Shown piece after piece: positions 3,495-63,336 of a stretch of DNA of 64,000 nt. Each line of letters starts with the position of its first letter. The first letter of the stretch is position 1. Origin of the DNA: Minisyncoccia bacterium. GTDB taxonomy: Bacteria; Patescibacteriota; Minisyncoccia; Phycocordibacterales; PALSA-1337. Below the pieces are notes generated by a model that was given only the letters and a program-made list of their open reading frames with translations, was not told the DNA's origin and did no database searches. A program made the position numbers and the translations under genes. Location: NCBI GenBank assembly GCA_044228445.1, contig JBGAUV010000001.1:250495-314494 (forward strand), given 5' to 3'.

Positions 3495-3721
3495 TATCCA
3501 CGCCTTAAGTAAGGCTGTGTTTATTGAAAATTTTAAGTTATGCATTAGAAAATTATGAGAACGTTTCTTAACAATAACATTGTTGAGAAGTCGAATTGAA
3601 AAGGTTCTTGTGAAGTCTAATGTCTATTTCAAATGATTCCTTAGAGCGGAATCAAACTCTATAGCAATTAAAAAGTGCTCAAAGTTTTACACTATACTGT
3701 GTTTTATTTTGTTCCATTCAT

Positions 3722-5250
3722 TTTAGTTAAGAGTTTGATCCTAGCTCAGGATGAACGCTGGCGGCGTGGATAAGGCATGCAAGTCAAACGGCTTAGCACT
3801 GTGCTCGCAAATTAATATTTGTTAGTAGAGTGCTAAGCAGTGGCAGACGAGGTAGTAATAAGCAGGTATCAACCTTCGAGTCAAGAATACCTCATCGAAA
3901 GATGAGTTAATACTTGATAGTCTCGAAAGAGTAAAGATTTATCGCTCGAAGATGAGCCTGTTCAGTATCAGCTAGTTGGTAGGGTAATGGCCTACCAAGG
4001 CTTCGACGCTTAGGGGAGGTGAGAGCCTGACCCCCACCGATGGAACTGAGACACGGTCCATACACCTACGGGTGGCCGCAGTCGAGAATCTTCCGCAATG
4101 GACGAAAGTCTGACGGAGCGACGCCGCGTGGATGATGAAGCACTTCGGTGCGTAAAATCCTTTTGCCAGGGAGAAAGTTTATTGATAGTACTTGGCGAAT
4201 AAGAGGTTGCTAAACTCGTGCCAGCAGCAGCGGTAATACGAGTGCCTCAAGCGTTATCCGGAATCATTGGGCGTAAAGGTTGTGTAGGTGGTTATATTAG
4301 TCTTTTGTTAAATTCTTCGGCTTAACCGGGGGCATGCAGAGGAAACGGTATAACTAGAGGATGCGAGGGGTTTCTGGAACTCATAGTGTAGCGGTAAAAT
4401 GCGTTGATATTATGGGGAACACCAAAAGCGAAGGCATGAAACTAGAGCACTCCTGACACTGAAACAAGAAAGCGTGGGTCGCGAATGGGATTAGATACCC
4501 CAGTAGTCCACGCCCTAAACGATCTTCTCTTGCTTTTCGGAGTATCGACCCTCCGAGAGGCGAAGCTAACGCGTTAAGAGAAGCGCCTGGGTAGTACGAC
4601 CGCAAGGTTAAAACTCAAAGGAATAGACGGGGACTTGCACAAGCGGTGGATCATGTGGCTCAATTCGACGGTAAACGAAGAACCTTACCAGGGTTTGAAA
4701 CCTAGCTGAATACTTTAGGAAACTAGAGTAGTCGCAAGACAGTTAGGCAGGTGATGCATGGCCGTCGTCAGTTCGTGGCTTGAGTTGTTCCCTTCAGTGG
4801 GGTAACGAACGCAACCCTCGTTGTCTGTTATATTTGTCAGGCGAGACTGCCCACGACATAGCGCATAAACTAAGTTTGTGCTCTGCGTCGTGGGAGGAAG
4901 GTGAGGATGACGCCAGGTCAGCATGTCCCTTTGATACCCTGGGCTGCACACGTGATACAATCGTATCTACAACAGGACGCAATACCGATAAAAGGTGGAG
5001 CAAATCCTTAGAAAAGATACGTCAGTTTGGATTGAGGTCTGCAACTCGACCTCATGAAACCGGAATCGCTAGTAATCGCAGATCAGCTATGCTGCGGTGA
5101 ATACGTTCTCAAGTCTTGTACTCACCGCCCGTCAACTCAAGGGAGTTGGGAGTACCCGAAGTCCGCGCTTGTCGCGGCCTAAGGTAAGCTCAATGACAGG
5201 GAGTAAGTCGTAACAAGGCACGGGTAGCGGAAGCTGCTCGTGGATTATTT
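3722..5250 (+). rRNA. rrs: 16S ribosomal RNA, divergent; 3' tail lacks CCUCC
   Basis: AGAGTTTGATCCTAGCTCAG at the 5' end; GTGCCAGCAGCAGCGGTAATAC, ATTAGATACCCCAGTAGTCC and AAGTCGTAACAAGG blocks; helix 45 with GGAA loop, then tail GATTATTTCAA. Confidence 0.9.
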
Positions 5251-5445
5251 CAAATTGAATCTTGATAATCCCTCAGGGATTATCTTACCGAGTCGATTTT
5301 TGTACTTAATTGTACAAACAAGGGATATTGTTCTACTACCTTACAGTGAACACTCAGTCTGCGAGAGAAAAGACAAAGATCGGTGTCCTCTATAGAGACA
5401 CTGATCGGATGAATGGAACAAAATAAAGTACAGTAATATGAAAGA

Positions 5446-5468
5446 ACCGCTTAAAAGGCGGTTTTTTC
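5446..5468 (+). terminator. Rho-independent terminator closing the 16S transcription unit
   Basis: accgcttaaaaggcgg hairpin followed by TTTTTT; no 23S follows. Confidence 0.4.
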
Positions 5469-5563
5469 TTTTTATAAATAATTATTTCCACATTTACTAT
5501 ATTTGATATGTGTGATATGTTTTTAGTGGAAATCTAGACATAGAGTCTAGTTAGAAAGGAGAT

Positions 5564-5799: not shown

Positions 5800-6486
5800 A
5801 TGAAAATAAAATTTTTCAAAATAATAGTTTTAATAATAGCAATATTGTTCTCAAAACATGCTTTTGCAAAAGAAGTTATATGTCCTGAGGGGTATATTTG
5901 CTTACCAAAAAATGATCCACTTATACTTGCTTCAACAAGTCCTTGTTTTATAGGTTCAAGCATGACAACCTCTTTTAAGGATTTAGATTCAAAAGCTAAA
6001 TCAATAGGTGATAGTATTTCATTTAAATTATTAAATAAGAATAAAGATTACGCTGGTACTTGGGGAGTATTTAAAAGTGGAAGTGGATCAAGTCCTGATT
6101 ACAATAAAGATTGGGGTTTTGAACTAAGTCTAAATCTTTCAAAATTAAAAACCATAAAGTCTATTACAATTATAAACGATGATGGTAATGAAGGTTGGTC
6201 AACTAGTGCGGATGAAAAGTTATTTGGTAAAAAGCCTTATCCTCTTGTTGTTATAGATAAAAATGGAGAGCAATTAAATTATGAATATGAAGATACTATT
6301 TTTATACCAAAAGGTGAAAGTATTTTAAATCTATACGGTCAGATTGAATATAGTGACTTAAGAAATACGGAAATTGTTGTTATTTTCACTGATAATACTT
6401 ATTTGAATAGTAAGATTATTGAAAATGCTTCAACTCAAGCAAATAATAGTCTTTGGGCTAAGTTAAAATCTAAGTTTGGATTTTAA
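5800..6486 (+). CDS. Secreted hypothetical protein with N-terminal signal peptide
   Basis: MKIKFFKIIVLIIAILFSKHAFA followed by a Cys-containing mature region; no family recognised. Confidence 0.55.
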   Translation: MKIKFFKIIVLIIAILFSKHAFAKEVICPEGYICLPKNDPLILASTSPCFIGSSMTTSFKDLDSKAKSIGDSISFKLLNKNKDYAGTWGVFKSGSGSSPDYNKDWGFELSLNLSKLKTIKSITIINDDGNEGWSTSADEKLFGKKPYPLVVIDKNGEQLNYEYEDTIFIPKGESILNLYGQIEYSDLRNTEIVVIFTDNTYLNSKIIENASTQANNSLWAKLKSKFGF

Positions 6487-19022: not shown

Positions 19023-19052
19023 TTGACAGAAAAGGTTGTTGCGTGCTAATAT
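19023..19052 (+). promoter_or_regulatory. Consensus sigma70 promoter TTGACA-N18-TAATAT driving the small RNA
   Basis: ttgacagaaaaggttgttgcgtgctaatat. Confidence 0.5.
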
Positions 19053-19058
19053 ATTTTT

Positions 19059-19190
19059 GCCACCCCAGAGGTATGAAATTGTTCCGTCGTCACCTCCTAG
19101 TGACCACAGGGTCATACCCCACGACGGGATGATCGATTACCTCTGAGGGTGGTATACGGCTTGCAGAATTTTTCTGCGGCCTTTTTTATT
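19059..19190 (+). ncRNA. Candidate structured small RNA carrying the CACCUCCU motif; family unassigned
   Basis: 14-bp outer stem ccaccccagaggta/tacctctgagggtgg; inner stem ccgtcgt/acgacgg; internal loop cacctcctag; 3' hairpin plus T-run; GC-richer than its flanks. Confidence 0.45.
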
Positions 19191-19216
19191 TATATTATAT
19201 TTATACACAATAAGTA

Positions 19217-19245: not shown

Positions 19246-19344
19246 ATTTATCCGGATGCACTCTACCTCGGTTTACTACTAGGAGGTGGTAGACTCAATA
19301 GGGGTAAGGGGGAGCATTGAACCTAGTTAAGTTAGGAGGTCAAA

Positions 19345-19530
19345 GTGTCAAAGGAAAATCCTGTGACGTCATGGAGGGTGATCGGGAAGCCGGTAGTCCG
19401 AAGTGACGGACACAATATTGTCAAAGTCGATAATGGAGGAAAGAGGCCGAGAGAAGTCCTTGTACCAAAGGGCACTCCAGCCAAAAATTTCAACGCCTTT
19501 ATCAAGCAGGCATTGTATCCCACTTATTGA
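19345..19530 (+). CDS. Small SD-led hypothetical protein (61 aa, GTG start)
   Basis: TAGGAGGT 5 nt before GTG; GC-rich codons; followed by a GC-rich terminator. Confidence 0.45.
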   Translation: MSKENPVTSWRVIGKPVVRSDGHNIVKVDNGGKRPREVLVPKGTPAKNFNAFIKQALYPTY

Positions 19531-19657: not shown

Positions 19658-21517
19658 ATGAATGAAGAAAGAATTACATATTTTGCTCAAACAGACGCTA
19701 GAAATAAAAAGGTTTCCTTTGGAATAAAAGCAAAGGATAGAACTCGTCATGTTTATGTAATAGGAAAAACAGGTATGGGTAAATCAACCCTACTTGAAAA
19801 CATGGCTGTACAAGACATAAAGAATGGTGAAGGAATGGCTTTTATAGATCCACACGGTAAAACAGCAGACTTACTTTTGGAATATGTACCAAAAGAAAGA
19901 ATAAAAGATGTAATATATTTTGCTCCTTTCGATCTAGATCACCCAATATCATTTAATGTGCTTGAAAAAGTAGATGCAGATAAAAGACATCTAGTAGTAT
20001 CAGGTTTGATGAGTACATTTAAAAAGATTTGGAAAGATGCTTGGTCAGCAAGAATGGAATATATTCTTACAAATACACTTTTAGCACTTCTTGAATATCC
20101 AGAAGCAACTTTGCTTGGTGTAAATAGAATGCTTTCAGATAAAGAGTATAGAAAAAAGGTTGTAGCTTCAGTAACTGATCCAGCAGTAAAAACATTTTGG
20201 GTAGAAGAATTTGCAAACTATACAGAACGTATGGCAGCAGAAGCAGTACCTGCAATACAAAATAAAATAGGACAGTTTACAGCAAATGCACTAATTAGAA
20301 ATATGATTGGTCAGCCAAAATCTTCTTTTGATATAAGAAAAGCAATGGATGAAAAGAAGATTATGATTATAAACCTATCAAAAGGTAGAATAGGAGAAAC
20401 AAATGCAAATCTATTGGGAGGTATGCTTATTACAAAAATATATCTAGCAGCACTTTCGCGAGCAGATGTACCTGATAGAGTATTAAAAACACTACCAAAC
20501 TTCTATTTATTCGTAGACGAGTTTCAATCTTTTGCAAATGAATCTTTTGCAGATATTCTATCAGAAGCAAGAAAGTATAAATTGAATCTAACAATAGCCC
20601 ATCAATACATTGAACAAATGGAAGAGGAAGTTAGAGCTGCTGTATTTGGAAACGTCGGAACAATGATTGTATTTCGTGTTGGTTCGTATGATGCTGAGGT
20701 TTTAGAAAAAGAATTTGCTCCGCAGTTTACAGCTGAAGATATTGTAAATCTTGGTTTTGCTCAAATATATTTAAAACTTATGATTGATGGAATAAGTTCA
20801 CTACCATTTTCTGCTACAACACTACCTCCAATTCCACAACCAGAGATTTCAAATGCAGATGAAGTTTTAGCTACTTCCAGAGCACAATTTGCAAAAAATA
20901 GAGATGAAGTTGAAAAGAATATTGCAGATTGGCATGCACCCATTACACCTCCACAAAAGAATAAAATACCAAAACCTCCAGAAAATACAAAAACAGATAA
21001 TTTACATAAAAATCAAGATAATAATCCAGCTCATAATATTCCGAAACCAATTCCTATACCAGTAAAACCACAAATGGAAGTAAATAATATTCCAAAACCT
21101 CATGTTGTTCAAAATCCAACAGTAAATCAAGCACAATTGGATAATAAAAATAACACACAAATACAAAATAACAATCATGGCAATATGGAAAATCATAAAG
21201 TTCATACTGAAGTTAATAATCACAAAACTGAAGAAAAAAAAGATGATTTTATTTCACTTGAAAGTTTAAAGAAACAGGTTACAAATACAGCTCCACAAAG
21301 TCAACACAAACCTCACGAAGTTCATGTAAAAAATGTAAAAGAACAAGATCCAAAAAATGTCAGTGAACTTAGAAATGCTTTAGCTTCAGTACTAAAGAAT
21401 AATAATTTACCTAAAAAAGACGAGGTAGATAAAAAAGAAAAAAATGAGGTAAAAAATGAGGTTCAAAAAGGTGAGGTTTCAGAGGATGTACTAAAACAGG
21501 TACTTAAGGTAGAGTAA
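19658..21517 (+). CDS. TraD/VirD4-like (DUF87/HerA-like) P-loop ATPase with long low-complexity C-terminal tail
   Basis: Walker A GKTGMGKST; LFVDEFQSF Walker B-like; C-terminal 200 aa rich in N, K, P, Q and H. Confidence 0.6.
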   Translation: MNEERITYFAQTDARNKKVSFGIKAKDRTRHVYVIGKTGMGKSTLLENMAVQDIKNGEGMAFIDPHGKTADLLLEYVPKERIKDVIYFAPFDLDHPISFNVLEKVDADKRHLVVSGLMSTFKKIWKDAWSARMEYILTNTLLALLEYPEATLLGVNRMLSDKEYRKKVVASVTDPAVKTFWVEEFANYTERMAAEAVPAIQNKIGQFTANALIRNMIGQPKSSFDIRKAMDEKKIMIINLSKGRIGETNANLLGGMLITKIYLAALSRADVPDRVLKTLPNFYLFVDEFQSFANESFADILSEARKYKLNLTIAHQYIEQMEEEVRAAVFGNVGTMIVFRVGSYDAEVLEKEFAPQFTAEDIVNLGFAQIYLKLMIDGISSLPFSATTLPPIPQPEISNADEVLATSRAQFAKNRDEVEKNIADWHAPITPPQKNKIPKPPENTKTDNLHKNQDNNPAHNIPKPIPIPVKPQMEVNNIPKPHVVQNPTVNQAQLDNKNNTQIQNNNHGNMENHKVHTEVNNHKTEEKKDDFISLESLKKQVTNTAPQSQHKPHEVHVKNVKEQDPKNVSELRNALASVLKNNNLPKKDEVDKKEKNEVKNEVQKGEVSEDVLKQVLKVE

Positions 21518-60226: not shown

Positions 60227-60646
60227 ATGTTAGTTGTTAAGACTAAAATTAAAAATAGTGAAATTGAAGGACTAGGTCTATTTGCTGATCAGTTTATACC
60301 TAAAGGTAGTGTAATTTGGAAATATGATCCAAGTTTTGATATTTATTTTGATCCTAAGGAGGTAGAAAAAATGTCAGAACCGCAAAAAGACCTGATAATA
60401 CATTTTGCTTATCTTTCAAAAAAAAGTGGTAAATATGTTTATTCAATAGATAATACAAGATTCACAAATCATTCAAATAAACCAAATACCGTAGAAGATG
60501 AAAATGTTTGTAGTGATGATTTAGAAATATGTACTATTGCTGTTAAGGATATTCAAATAGGGGAGGAAATTACTATTGATTATCGGGTAATTGACGCAGT
60601 GGATGAAGGTAGTAATGAGGAGTATTTGAAGACGGTAGTTCTATAG
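60227..60646 (+). CDS. Small SET-domain protein (putative lysine methyltransferase), co-operonic with nrdAB
   Basis: EIEGLGLFA...NHS..PN...IQIGEEITIDY SET motifs. Confidence 0.6.
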   Translation: MLVVKTKIKNSEIEGLGLFADQFIPKGSVIWKYDPSFDIYFDPKEVEKMSEPQKDLIIHFAYLSKKSGKYVYSIDNTRFTNHSNKPNTVEDENVCSDDLEICTIAVKDIQIGEEITIDYRVIDAVDEGSNEEYLKTVVL

Positions 60647-60748
60647 AGTTTTTATGGTTTAGGAATAAAAGTGGGCTCACCGAAACGAATTTCAGTGAGC
60701 CCAGGGACAACCTTTTTCTCATGTTTCGCTCGCCACTACTTAGATACC

Positions 60749-60921
60749 TAAGATTTAGGCAAAAATTTACCCCACTTACATTTCCGTAAGTGGGGCGTAC
60801 CTAGGAATTTAGGATGACTTGAATCGTCTTGCGACGAATGATCAGAGCCATAAAAACCTAGATATATAAGATACTGACTTCTACATCACAGCAAACTACT
60901 ATAACTTTGTCAAGTGACAAA
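60749..60921 (+). repeat. Direct repeat copy 1, 173 bp, with GC hairpin ccccacttac/gtaagtgggg and palindrome TTTGTCAAGTGACAAA
   Basis: Identical to 62711-62883 except for a single C/T mismatch; similarity continues with an indel for about 40 bp more. Confidence 0.9.
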
Positions 60922-60969
60922 TGTGTGTACCTAAAACAGTGGTCTCATAGAGTTTAAGGTCTAGCTATA

Positions 60970-60998
60970 TTGACATACTAAACTAAATGTGCTATTTT
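60970..60998 (+). promoter_or_regulatory. Promoter-like TTGACA-N17-TATTTT before cassette ORF A
   Basis: Part of the recurring module tagagtttaaggtNtagNta-ttgacata. Confidence 0.4.
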
Positions 60999-61050
60999 TG
61001 TATGTAATAGCACATTTCAACGATTTCAACCCAAAACCATTAGGAGAACC

Positions 61051-61425
61051 ATGAGCAAGCCTTCTTTCACCGTATTTGTTGGCATAAAGGGCGAATTCTC
61101 AGAAGAAGATTACGCCAAACTTCCGTCCGAGCTTCGAAAAGCATACTCGCCGTGTCCTGAATGGGATCTGGGAGAGGAAATCATTATCGACGGATTGGAA
61201 TTTGATTCCTTTGACCTTGGTCGCGATGACACTGCTGATCCGGGAGAATATGTGGGCTTCGGCGTCCATATCTTCGGTCAGTGGTATGACAGCGGAGCTA
61301 CTTGCTTCGCTCTTGATGAGCTTCAAACAATCGAATCTGTTCGTCAGAAGATGACAACTCTCTTCGATCAATGGAAGCTCGATGCCAAAGTCGAAGTGTT
61401 CTGCTTTGCAGGATACAATTCATAA
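61051..61425 (+). CDS. Cassette ORF A: acidic 124-aa hypothetical protein with SD
   Basis: TTAGGAGAACC-ATG; GC-rich codons; net acidic (many D/E). Confidence 0.5.
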   Translation: MSKPSFTVFVGIKGEFSEEDYAKLPSELRKAYSPCPEWDLGEEIIIDGLEFDSFDLGRDDTADPGEYVGFGVHIFGQWYDSGATCFALDELQTIESVRQKMTTLFDQWKLDAKVEVFCFAGYNS

Positions 61426-61692
61426 CCCATCAACTCACTCCAGAAAACCCCTGTCGCGAGATGGTGGGTTTTCTGTTTTATAAAATTCCAATATGTTGAT
61501 ACTAACAGACTTGAACGGCATCCTAAATAGATGTCATTTATTGTTACTTGCTATATAAAAATCTCGTTGATATGTTGTTAGGTAAGACGAGCTTGAAATC
61601 AAAATAAAAACTAGAGCATCTTCTATGGGGAATTCAATCAGTATTTAACTCTGTGAAGACGGTAGTATTATAGAGTTTAAGGTTTAGACTAC

Positions 61693-61720
61693 TTGACATA
61701 TGACCATGTCGTGATATAAT
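61693..61720 (+). promoter_or_regulatory. Near-consensus sigma70 promoter TTGACA-N16-TATAAT before cassette ORF B
   Basis: ttgacatatgaccatgtcgtgatataat. Confidence 0.55.
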
Positions 61721-61779
61721 TTAAAAGGACTAGGATTTTTCCTAATGCTGTCCAGCAAAATCATACTTGGAGGATAGAA

Positions 61780-62139
61780 ATGTACTCTGACGATAAAACT
61801 CTAAAAGAGTTCATGACTGTACTTGTAAGTACAGCTGCGGCTCGGAGAAACTACTTGGATGTCCCTAGCGATTTCATTTTGAGACATCCCTGGACACTGA
61901 AATACCTTTCCAATTTCGCTGAGGCTGACGATTTCATGCAGATCGCGAAAACGGAAGGAGTCCAGATTGTTTGCGAGGATGAACCCAAAAACATTCAAGA
62001 GTTTCGCCGGGACCATGGTCTCAAACCACAGGTTCGCTACAAAGTGTTTGTTCCAGCCGAAACAAAAATCAGAACAAAAGAACAGATCTTCAAGTTCGAA
62101 AGACAAGGAGATGGTTCATATGTTCCACTCAATGGCTGA
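61780..62139 (+). CDS. Cassette ORF B: 119-aa hypothetical protein with SD
   Basis: CTTGGAGGATAGAA-ATG; followed by terminator aaaaccccatct...agatggggtttt. Confidence 0.5.
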   Translation: MYSDDKTLKEFMTVLVSTAAARRNYLDVPSDFILRHPWTLKYLSNFAEADDFMQIAKTEGVQIVCEDEPKNIQEFRRDHGLKPQVRYKVFVPAETKIRTKEQIFKFERQGDGSYVPLNG

Positions 62140-62142
62140 ACC

Positions 62143-62186
62143 AAAACCCCATCTACGCTTTCATGAGAAGATGGGGTTTTGTCTTT
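62143..62186 (+). terminator. Rho-independent terminator after ORF B
   Basis: Stem ccccatct/agatgggg followed by ttttgtctttt. Confidence 0.55.
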
Positions 62187-62522
62187 TAGAAGATGGTGGT
62201 TTAATGTAGTTTAAAATTTAGATAAAAGAAAGCCGGCCAAACCTTATGGGTCTGGCCGGGAAAGTGATGGGTATGCGCCCATCTGCGGATCATTTACGAT
62301 CATTTTGCCAGTAAAATAAGGTTATTTCTGGTTACGTATCCCTGGTATTGTGTCCAGACACGTAACTTATGAATACTAACCTTATTCTTTTACCATCATA
62401 GCAAATTACTATAACTTTGTCAAGTATTCAAAGATGTCGGTGTTATGGAGTTCAAGTTCTAACCTCTATTGATATAATTAATCTAGAGTGTTAATCTTCT
62501 TTTTAAGAAAGGAGAGTACATC

Positions 62523-62720
62523 ATGATCAAAATTACTGTCCGTAAAGAAGGAGAGAGAACCTTTGCGGCCTATGTGGACGATGAAAATATGCGGCGCATA
62601 GGTGAGTCTCGAGGAGAAGCTGTTGGCAAAGTCGTATCTGATCTCATTGAACAAAGGTCAGTACGGTTGGAAGATTGTCAAGTGCATCAAATCGAGATTA
62701 AACAAAAATATAAGATTTAG
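62523..62720 (+). CDS. Cassette ORF C: 65-aa protein resembling HicB/UPF0150-type antitoxin N-domain
   Basis: ITVRKEGERTFAAYVDD...GESRGEAVGKV resembles the HicB-like pattern; SD AAAGGAGAG; stop codon lies inside repeat copy 2. Confidence 0.4.
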   Translation: MIKITVRKEGERTFAAYVDDENMRRIGESRGEAVGKVVSDLIEQRSVRLEDCQVHQIEIKQKYKI

Positions 62721-62883
62721 GCAAAAATTTACCCCACTTACATTTCCGTAAGTGGGGCGTACCTAGGAATTTAGGATGACTTGAATCGTCTTGCGACGAA
62801 TGATCAGAGCCATAAAAACCTAGATATATAAGATACTGACTTCTACATCATAGCAAACTACTATAACTTTGTCAAGTGACAAA
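62711..62883 (+). repeat. Direct repeat copy 2 (173 bp)
   Basis: See copy 1; offset exactly 1962 bp. Confidence 0.9.
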
Positions 62884-62981
62884 GATAGTGGTCTCATCGG
62901 GTTTAAAATAACCAGTATTTACAATTTGTATAATTTAGTATATAAAAAATGTAGACTTAATTTAACACTGAAAGGTGCATC

Positions 62982-63200
62982 ATGAGTATTCTAAGAGAAT
63001 TCCGTAACGCCAGCCCAAGTGAAAAAGACCCTGCAAAACTTATTTTATTCACAGTATTTGCTGACCTTAATGCTCGGCACGGCTTCGGGGATTTCTGGAG
63101 CGGTATTAACAATGATATAAAAGAAGAAATTTTGAAAACAAATCTCGAAAAGATAAGAGAAATACTGAAGAAAAAGACTCAAACCAAAAACAAAGATTGA
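62982..63200 (+). CDS. Cassette ORF D: 72-aa hypothetical protein
   Basis: AAAGGTG before ATG; extended -10 TGTATAAT upstream; terminator hairpin at 63224-63268. Confidence 0.4.
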   Translation: MSILREFRNASPSEKDPAKLILFTVFADLNARHGFGDFWSGINNDIKEEILKTNLEKIREILKKKTQTKNKD

Positions 63201-63336
63201 AAAAAAGTGACTGAATCAATCCAGGCCTCGTGTATATACATAAAAGTAAACACGAGGCTTTGAATTTTATATATCACACTTATATTTTAATAAATAACCA
63301 TTTGCCATAATATATTAAGATATGGTATAATTATTA

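Follow-up and report, generated by a model that had tools for sequence, protein, structure and literature searches.

The 16S ribosomal RNA (rRNA) gene within a 64,000-nucleotide (nt) stretch of contig JBGAUV010000001.1 (GenBank assembly GCA_044228445.1, a Minisyncoccia bacterium), hereafter the window, was found to end without the anti-Shine-Dalgarno (anti-SD) core CCUCC, and the native genes around it were found to lack Shine-Dalgarno (SD) motifs, whereas five small open reading frames (ORFs) in two islands of higher G+C content carried strong ones. The explanation that we consider probable, taken as a whole, is that the organism belongs to a clade devoid of the anti-SD, initiates translation of its native genes independently of the SD, and harbors the island SDs as unread relics of transfer. 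The window, to which the gene-level results below refer, covers 64 kb, the genome being several hundred kb in size. The loss of the anti-SD in this group of the Candidate Phyla Radiation (CPR) has already been published, and the window is a further genome of the published pattern; new herein are the replacement tails, the marks at the native starts, and the SD-bearing cassettes in an anti-SD-less host. These cassettes, together with an anti-SD-like small RNA, are regarded as modestly interesting leads rather than as established novelties.

The 16S rRNA tail and its distribution across the clade

The features of the 16S transcription unit are as follows.

3695-3721, plus strand: 5' leader strand of the pre-16S processing stem, read from the sequence, with two mismatches or wobbles against the reverse complement of 5409-5435
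3723-5255, plus strand: full-length 16S rRNA gene (cmscan, RF00177, 1341 bits, model positions 1-1533)
5219-5242, plus strand: helix 45, consisting of cacgggtagc (5219-5228), the loop GGAA (5229-5232) and gctgctcgtg (5233-5242), placed by the cmscan 3' alignment
5242-5255, plus strand: 16S 3' tail GGAUUAUUUCAAAU, from the sequence and the cmscan alignment
5409-5435, plus strand: 3' trailer strand of the processing stem (AUGAAUGGAACAAAAUAAAGUACAGUA)
about 5444-5470, plus strand: intrinsic terminator closing the solitary 16S unit, read from the sequence

In the cmscan 3' alignment, helix 45 was fully paired as a clade-specific compensated variant of the consensus, and the expected GGAUCACCUCCUUU at the 16S 3' end was replaced by GGAUUAUUUCAAAU, so that, relative to the consensus GGAUcACCUCCUUu, UUUCA at 5248-5252 stood opposite CCUCC. 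A preceding interpretation of the window made from the sequence alone (the sequence-only reading) had described precisely this, an intact helix 45 followed by a CCUCC core turned into UUUCA, and was exact in this respect. It had also stated that no CCUCC occurs in the next 200 nt, which is true over a much longer distance, as no CCTCC was found on the plus strand between 4550 (within the 16S gene) and 11527, i.e., about 6 kb past the gene. The 16S gene made up a transcription unit by itself (3695-5470), complete with a leader/trailer stem and a terminator, and no 23S gene was present in the part of the window downstream of it (58 kb 3' of the 16S gene). The structured 3' trailer of 150 nt was 74-80% conserved in relatives, in which it always closed with a GAAYGGAACAAAAUAAAG stem strand followed by a terminator (hairpin and T-run), and neither in the window nor in 12 relatives did it contain a conserved CCUCC up to the processing stem. 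An anti-SD hidden in this trailer was also considered and rejected: CCUCU occurred in a palindromic hairpin of some relatives, but was swapped for an unrelated hairpin in L203 and L205, and the trailer therefore hides no anti-SD.

A scan of genomes with a loose helix-45 pattern returned at least 120 loci; the pattern proved too general (Solirubrobacterales, Chloroflexi, etc.), yet was of use as an internal control. At least 110 of these loci, having other helix-45 sequences (Solirubrobacterales, Chloroflexi, Saccharimonadales, and others), all ended in GGAU(C/U)ACCUCCUU and kept CCUCC, while among the matches listed CCUCC was absent in 10 of the 10 loci sharing the exact helix 45 of the window, all of which were metagenome-assembled genomes of Patescibacteria (CPR). 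A metagenome scan with the window's own 39-mer ending at GGAU, and hence agnostic to the tail, gave at least 120 further loci, and CCUCC was missing in 117 of the 120 among the matches listed. Altogether, the same helix-45 24-mer was present in at least 130 public sequences, with CCUCC missing in 127 of the 130 matches listed; an inspection of close relatives had been proposed in the sequence-only reading, and the relatives bore the loss out. Since the 16S identities of the clade loci to the window ranged from 97% or more down to about 73%, the clade is deep. Its nearest genomes were labeled Patescibacteria group, Ca. Paceibacterota or, loosely, Ca. Saccharibacteria.

Two main tail types were recognized, GGAUUAWUUCAA (that of the window) and GGAUCAUUUWUUUU, in each of which the first 12-20 nt were conserved and the remainder was not. 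Within the subclade of the window, GGAUUnWUUCAA was conserved across 53 distinct sequences, and the conservation faded after about 20 nt. Such a pattern fits a mature end of about normal length that would still be under some constraint.

Two further observations concern the 16S locus. A tRNA-Ile(GAT) gene lay 1.3 kb 3' of the 16S gene, past an inserted ORF (5800-6486). Moreover, the site of the universal primer 515F at 4219-4237 read GTGCCAGCAGCAGCGGTAA, with A in place of the expected C, a mismatch through which the organism would be under-detected in standard amplicon surveys.

Start sites of the native genes

The strength of an SD was taken as the duplex energy of positions -20 to -1 with the canonical tail, with -7 kcal/mol as the cut-off. 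The native ORFs (n = 48) gave a mean of -2.0 kcal/mol, and only 2 of the 48 reached the cut-off. The start sites that the sequence-only reading had described as free of purine-rich SDs agreed with this result in their upstream regions, and the gene names given there (SecF, pyruvate kinase, RadC, SecA, NrdA, and NrdB) were confirmed by Pfam. Pairing of the real tail with the native leaders showed no excess over that of shuffled tails (z = -0.8 with a 13-nt tail and +0.3 with an 18-nt tail), by which a co-evolved AU-rich SD was rejected. The pentamers AAAUA, AAUAA, and AUAAU were enriched upstream of the native starts, an enrichment that reflects composition, stop codons, and -10 boxes.

The native starts bore several other marks. 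A gap of at most 5 nt to the upstream gene, or an overlap with it, was found for 22 of the 48 native genes. For 18 of the 26 uncoupled ones, a -10-like box ended 4-12 nt before the ATG, and the extended -10 sequence (TGnTAnWWT) was observed six times at this distance against 0.48 expected (Poisson p = 1e-5). The native leaders were rich in A (0.5-0.67 at most positions from -13 to -2) and poor in G (0.12 or less from -7 to -1), and folding was weaker at the start regions than at internal regions (-5.1 vs -6.8 kcal/mol). As judged from these marks, translational coupling, leaderless or near-leaderless mRNAs, and open A-rich leaders are the likely routes of native initiation. Across the clade, a home-made ORF caller applied to 107 loci (424 ORFs) gave SD-like pairing that was weaker upstream than within genes (-2.8 vs -4.1 kcal/mol), a difference that is suggestive only. 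The SD-independent initiation proposed for the host in the sequence-only reading thus gains support from the clade-wide tail, the SD-less starts, the lack of complementarity to the tail, and the marks of coupling, leaderless transcripts, and A-rich leaders, all of which are features of sequence.

Besides these results, a run of about 25 kb (21522-47000) was made up of genes of the glycosyltransferase, methyltransferase, flippase, and O-antigen-ligase-like types, most of which abutted their neighbor or overlapped it by 4 nt; this surface-glycan cluster is very large for so small a genome. In addition, two loci labeled Magasanikbacteria (L001 and L019) kept GGAUCACCUCCUU together with a related helix-45 variant, yet their 16S-adjacent ORFs (7 ORFs) had no SD. 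This small sample of 7 ORFs gives a hint that the use of SDs disappeared earlier than the anti-SD in the Magasanikbacteria-related part of the CPR.

Small genes and RNAs of the two islands

The SDs of the islands, together with their spacing and start codons, are as follows.

19345, island 1: AGGAGG-5-GTG
61051, island 2: AGGAGA-3-ATG
61780, island 2: GGAGGA-5-ATG
62523, island 2: AAGGAGA-7-ATG
62982, island 2: AAGGTG-4-ATG

The five small ORFs gave a mean of -9.0 kcal/mol with the canonical tail, and all five reached -7 kcal/mol as compared with 2 of the 48 native ORFs (Fisher p = 7e-6), in good agreement with the earlier statement that the islands, unlike the native genes, use strong SDs. 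With the real tail, however, the same SDs gave only -1.9 to -3.2 kcal/mol, which equals the background; a rescue by G-U wobble (GAGGUG with UAUUUC) was rejected on these energies. The islands had been called GC-rich, and they are indeed richer than their surroundings, although only in a relative sense (0.40-0.50 vs about 0.27).

Island 2 comprises the following elements.

60627-63300, plus strand: island 2, in which self-contained units are arrayed, flanked by a SET-domain gene and the RNase P RNA gene
60749-60921, minus strand: copy 1 of the 173-nt repeat, encoding a structured RNA that has a TTGACA-17 promoter and a terminator of its own (z = -6.0)
60931-61476, plus strand: cassette A, with repeat, promoter, leader, AGGAGA (61042-61047), ORF A (61051-61425), and terminator
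61654-62188, plus strand: cassette B, with repeat, perfect TTGACA-16-TATAAT promoter, GGAGGA (61769-61774), ORF B (61780-62139), and terminator
62222-62390, minus strand: third structured RNA, unrelated to the 173-nt repeat, with its own promoter and terminator (z = -6.1)
62431-62720, plus strand: cassette C, with repeat, promoter, AAGGAGA (62509-62515), and ORF C (62523-62720)
62711-62883, minus strand: 173-nt repeat, copy 2, 99% identical to copy 1
62882-63263, plus strand: cassette D, with repeat, promoter, AAGGTG (62972-62977), ORF D (62982-63200), and terminator hairpin

Each unit followed the same order, namely a head repeat of 25-45 nt (AAGAYGGTRGT..ATAGAGTTTAAGGT), a sigma-70-type promoter, a leader, an SD, an ORF, and a terminator, and structured minus-strand RNAs were interleaved with the units; no CCUCC loop was found in these RNAs. 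The first copy of the head repeat was the 3' end of the SET-domain gene (60227-60646, plus strand), which encodes a lysine methyltransferase-type protein and is translationally coupled to nrdB. The array looks as if site-specific insertions had recurred beside the RNase P RNA gene, and the repeats at the unit heads, the 3' end of the SET gene among them, may be att-like. Island 2 and its junction with the host gene recurred in independent assemblies, the junction being confirmed in L241. Searches of IMG/VR, the INPHARED phages, and the PLSDB plasmids revealed no phage or plasmid relative of island 2, and the motif matches in IMG/VR were at chance level without extended similarity.

Cassette A (560 nt) was present in seven unrelated CPR contexts (the window and six other genomes), in which the homology started at the repeat and promoter and stopped just past the terminator, and in L245 the homologue lay 470 nt from a phage-type integrase and adjoined a Bro-N gene. 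Its G+C content was 0.45-0.48 whether that of the host locus was 0.29 or 0.48. ORF A had nine homologues of the same length (63-83% identity), and the ratio of nonsynonymous to synonymous substitution rates (dN/dS) was 0.05-0.14 for most pairs, with dS at about 1 (saturated). Judging from these ratios, the ORF A protein is under strong purifying selection. The sequence-only reading had asked whether the island genes are translated: since ORF A evolves as a protein under such selection, it is translated somewhere, which answers the question in part. ORF A matched no Pfam family, and its AlphaFold model, with a predicted local distance difference test score (pLDDT) of 80, had only weak matches, to uncharacterized phage proteins, and none in the PDB at E ≤ 0.001.

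In every cassette A context, the housekeeping neighbors (LeuRS, YchF, a sigma factor, MurA, DUF5671, and RpoB/C) lacked an SD, and several other small, G+C-richer neighbors carried one. The cassette's own SD read AGGAG in five of the seven copies and was broken in the other two (AGGAU and AGUAG), with the -35 box invariant throughout. In the ORF B family, the GGAGGA of the window copy corresponded to a weak AAAGGG in one of the two homologues examined and to no SD in the other. As a separate observation, in other contigs of SD-less CPR the genes with perfect SDs (AAGGAGG and GGGAGG) near the cassette A homologues were hypothetical ones that were small or richer in G+C; these SD-bearing neighbors are located as follows.

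L245: 7213-8235
L246: 7744-7938 and 11125-11295
L255: 3919-4113

Island 1 is of a different build, and its elements are given below.

19023-19195, plus strand: small RNA, with TTGACA-18-TAATAT promoter, 140-nt hairpin, and terminator
19091-19101, plus strand: CACCUCCUAGU in an interior loop of this RNA, containing the canonical anti-SD sequence
19278-19288, plus strand: leader segment ACUAGGAGGUG of the small ORF, complementary to the RNA loop at all 11 nt
19334-19530, plus strand: AGGAGG (19334-19339) and a 61-codon, putatively coding ORF (GTG 19345)

The RNA was predicted to fold into a very stable irregular hairpin (minimum free energy -64.4 kcal/mol, z = -8.2), in the interior loop of which CACCUCCUA(GU), i.e., the canonical anti-SD that has no counterpart in the host 16S rRNA, was predicted to be unpaired. 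A complement of at least 11 nt was reached in 0.5% of 2000 shuffles (p about 0.005), the target at 19278-19288 was predicted to be situated at a hairpin loop, and GGAGG occurred four times within 160 nt of the island. Both the 61-codon ORF and the island had relatives at the strain level only; among three strain variants, the loop motif was invariant, the apical hairpin was much changed, and the stem changes kept G-U pairing. None of the island RNAs matched an Rfam family at E ≤ 1. In silico, the island 1 RNA fits what is expected of a small antisense RNA that occludes an SD, being predicted to be transcribed on its own and to expose a C/U-rich loop that matches the SD region of its target by complementarity, and the G+C content of the island may be due to the structured RNA rather than to a foreign origin. 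On a sober reading, island 1 would be an antisense-type RNA-RNA module in which the apparent SD serves as the interaction site. A gene for a TrwB/VirD4-type coupling-protein ATPase with a 200-residue low-complexity tail rich in N, K, and P (19658-21517, plus strand) followed directly 3' of the island.

Proposed explanation, rivals and known systems

According to the explanation that we favor, the host would be a Parcubacteria-type member of the CPR whose entire clade has lost the 16S anti-SD, and because of this loss its ribosome would be unable to dock mRNAs by SD pairing. Native genes would instead be served by re-initiation or coupling where genes abut or overlap, by leaderless or nearly leaderless mRNAs having a -10 box a few bases before the ATG, and by direct selection of the start codon in A-rich, G-poor, and weakly folded leaders. 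Strong SDs would be confined to short, G+C-richer units with their own promoter and terminator, of which at least those of island 2 would be horizontally moving cassettes. The SDs of these cassettes would originate in a pool of genes where SDs are read and would now be decaying; in the host, the ribosome would not read them, and the genes would be translated, if at all, via the SD-independent route. Within this explanation, the sequence of the tail, its spread over the clade, the SD-less native starts, the signatures of the alternative routes, the mobility of cassette A, and the selection on the ORF A protein are shown by the data, whereas it is by inference that the SDs are taken as unread relics and the island genes as translated in this cell.

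Several points weigh against this explanation. The crude ORF pipeline gave no SD enrichment in anti-SD-positive control loci, a failure caused by wrong starts in high-GC DNA and by ORFs inside the 23S gene. Leaderless transcription was deduced from promoter geometry only, and no integrase was found in island 2 or elsewhere in the window. As island 1 had no relatives beyond the strain level and its G+C content could reflect RNA structure, a foreign origin is supported only for island 2. Furthermore, AGGAG was kept at the same spacing in five of the seven cassette A copies despite the saturated dS, and could thus still be under selection. The whole leader of cassette A was conserved, so that the SD is inseparable from other constraints.

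The retention of AGGAG is also the chief support for the view that the island SDs are functional and selected, either because the cassettes shuttle between anti-SD-positive and anti-SD-less Parcubacteria or because the purine motif aids initiation without the 16S tail, through an open start or a protein. Hosts of the required kind exist, since about half of the Parcubacteria are reported to keep the anti-SD (PMC9297842), and the cassette G+C of 0.46 has not drifted toward the 0.29 of the host, as would be the case for a recent arrival from a different pool. Nevertheless, all seven recovered contexts had SD-less housekeeping neighbors, the motif was lost in two copies of cassette A and was absent or weak in the ORF B homologues, and the -35 box was invariant where the SD was not, so that we judge functional SDs unlikely. 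Somewhat less doubtful, and worth entertaining as a tentative alternative, is that the GGAGG motifs of island 1 are RNA-RNA sites, the CACCUCCUA-loop RNA pairing with the GGAGG-bearing leader as an antisense-type module and the ORF possibly being non-coding. In its favor are the RNA's own promoter and terminator, the stable fold with the motif unpaired, the perfect 11-nt complement in the adjacent leader with its target at a hairpin loop, the fourfold GGAGG, and the strain variants that keep the motif and still pair as G-U where the stem has changed. Against it, the relatives were only near-identical strains and hence offered no real covariation, no Rfam family was matched, and it offers no explanation for the SDs of the four island 2 cassettes, the minus-strand RNAs there having no CCUCC loop. 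A bolder variant holds that the island brings its own SD-binding RNA, a hairpin presenting CACCUCCUA, which represses the GGAGG-bearing mRNAs of the island in trans or, conceivably, serves them as an adaptor, so that the SDs are in use with a reader other than the ribosome; we regard this as quite improbable. If it were true, a mobile element would be carrying an SD/anti-SD pair into a cell that gave up the system.

The remaining rivals concern the 16S tail itself. An anti-SD might be present after all, in another 16S copy or in an extended mature 3' end, given that the window represents only a fraction of the genome and that the mature end is a predicted one, which also weighs against the favored explanation. 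However, the trailers contained no conserved CCUCC, conservation of the tail stopped after about 20 nt, this helix 45 was found, among the matches listed, once per assembly in the 10 genome assemblies, and the native genes have no SD to read; we therefore hold this to be very improbable. That the tail is a sequencing or assembly artefact, or belongs to a decaying 16S pseudogene, is least probable of all and was refuted by the same tail in independent assemblies (L199, L224, L211, and others); the full-length, high-scoring 16S gene, the conservation of the tail across the 53 distinct subclade sequences, and the recovery of both islands with the same junctions in independent assemblies are likewise at odds with it.

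In the explanation that we favor, a deep CPR clade has dropped an interaction that textbooks treat as the bacterial default. For genomes of this kind, gene callers and expression designs that rely on the SD will misplace starts, and the 16S 3' end is unusable as an anti-SD reference. In SD-less CPR genomes, a strong SD could be an inexpensive flag for recently transferred or imported DNA, and, should the island SDs or the anti-SD-like RNA prove functional, they would provide a natural test case for SD action without a ribosomal partner.

The closest known cases are those of the CPR. The anti-SD motif is absent in a subgroup of the Parcubacteria, being detected in only 48% of them, and this subgroup overlaps the group lacking uL1, in which SD helices are, according to the authors, probably not formed (Tsurumaki et al. 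2022, RNA 28:1041, PMC9297842); the uL1 locus of the present genome lies outside the 64-kb window. Likewise, Ca. Campbellbacteria, Wolfebacteria, SR1, and Peregrinibacteria have been listed among "SD-scarce organisms lacking CCUCC" (PLoS One 2024, e0289914, PMC10783764). The host resembles the anti-SD-less Parcubacteria, Campbellbacteria, and Wolfebacteria in being a CPR member with an intact helix 45, no CCUCC, and no SD before its genes, clade-wide, and differs from them in nothing essential; there the loss is given in one sentence or table row, and the papers on these groups do not describe replacement tails, initiation signatures, or SD-bearing mobile genes. Across 128 taxa, organisms without an anti-SD also lacked SD motifs and never evolved a matching new pair (Amin et al. 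2018, PMC6107228). Era binds GAUCACCUCC, and era has been lost in most CPR (PMC10582724), which may leave the 16S tail with one constraint fewer.

The cassettes of island 2 are comparable to prophage "morons" and the cargo of integrative elements, with which they share a single small ORF, an own promoter and terminator, a deviant composition, and varied insertion sites, one cassette A copy lying beside an integrase. They differ from morons in that no phage or plasmid relative was found, in the lack of an integrase in the island of the window, in the shared head repeat of 25-45 nt, and in being interleaved with structured RNAs of the opposite strand.

With regard to initiation, the -10 box a few bases before the ATG in many promoter-proximal genes is reminiscent of the leaderless initiation of Actinobacteria, Deinococcus, and many archaea; these organisms, however, keep the anti-SD and use SDs for internal operon genes, while the comparison on the side of the host relies on promoter geometry. 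The host also resembles the Bacteroidetes in having mRNAs without SDs and with A-rich, unstructured leaders at the starts. SD-independent initiation of the Bacteroidetes type is reportedly the subject of work by Baez et al. in 2019 and Jha et al. in 2021; in the Bacteroidetes the anti-SD is retained and sequestered in the ribosome, whereas in the host the sequence itself is gone from the 16S rRNA. Bacteria without an anti-SD were reportedly described by Lim et al. in 2012. As in Ca. Carsonella, Hodgkinia, some Mycoplasma, Blattabacterium, and some Flavobacteriia, both the anti-SD and the SD have been lost in a small AT-rich genome, and, as in cases of the Carsonella/Hodgkinia type, no compensating new SD/anti-SD pair has arisen. 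Unlike those scattered endosymbionts, the host belongs to an unrelated lineage, in which the loss extends across a large, deep, and environmentally widespread clade.

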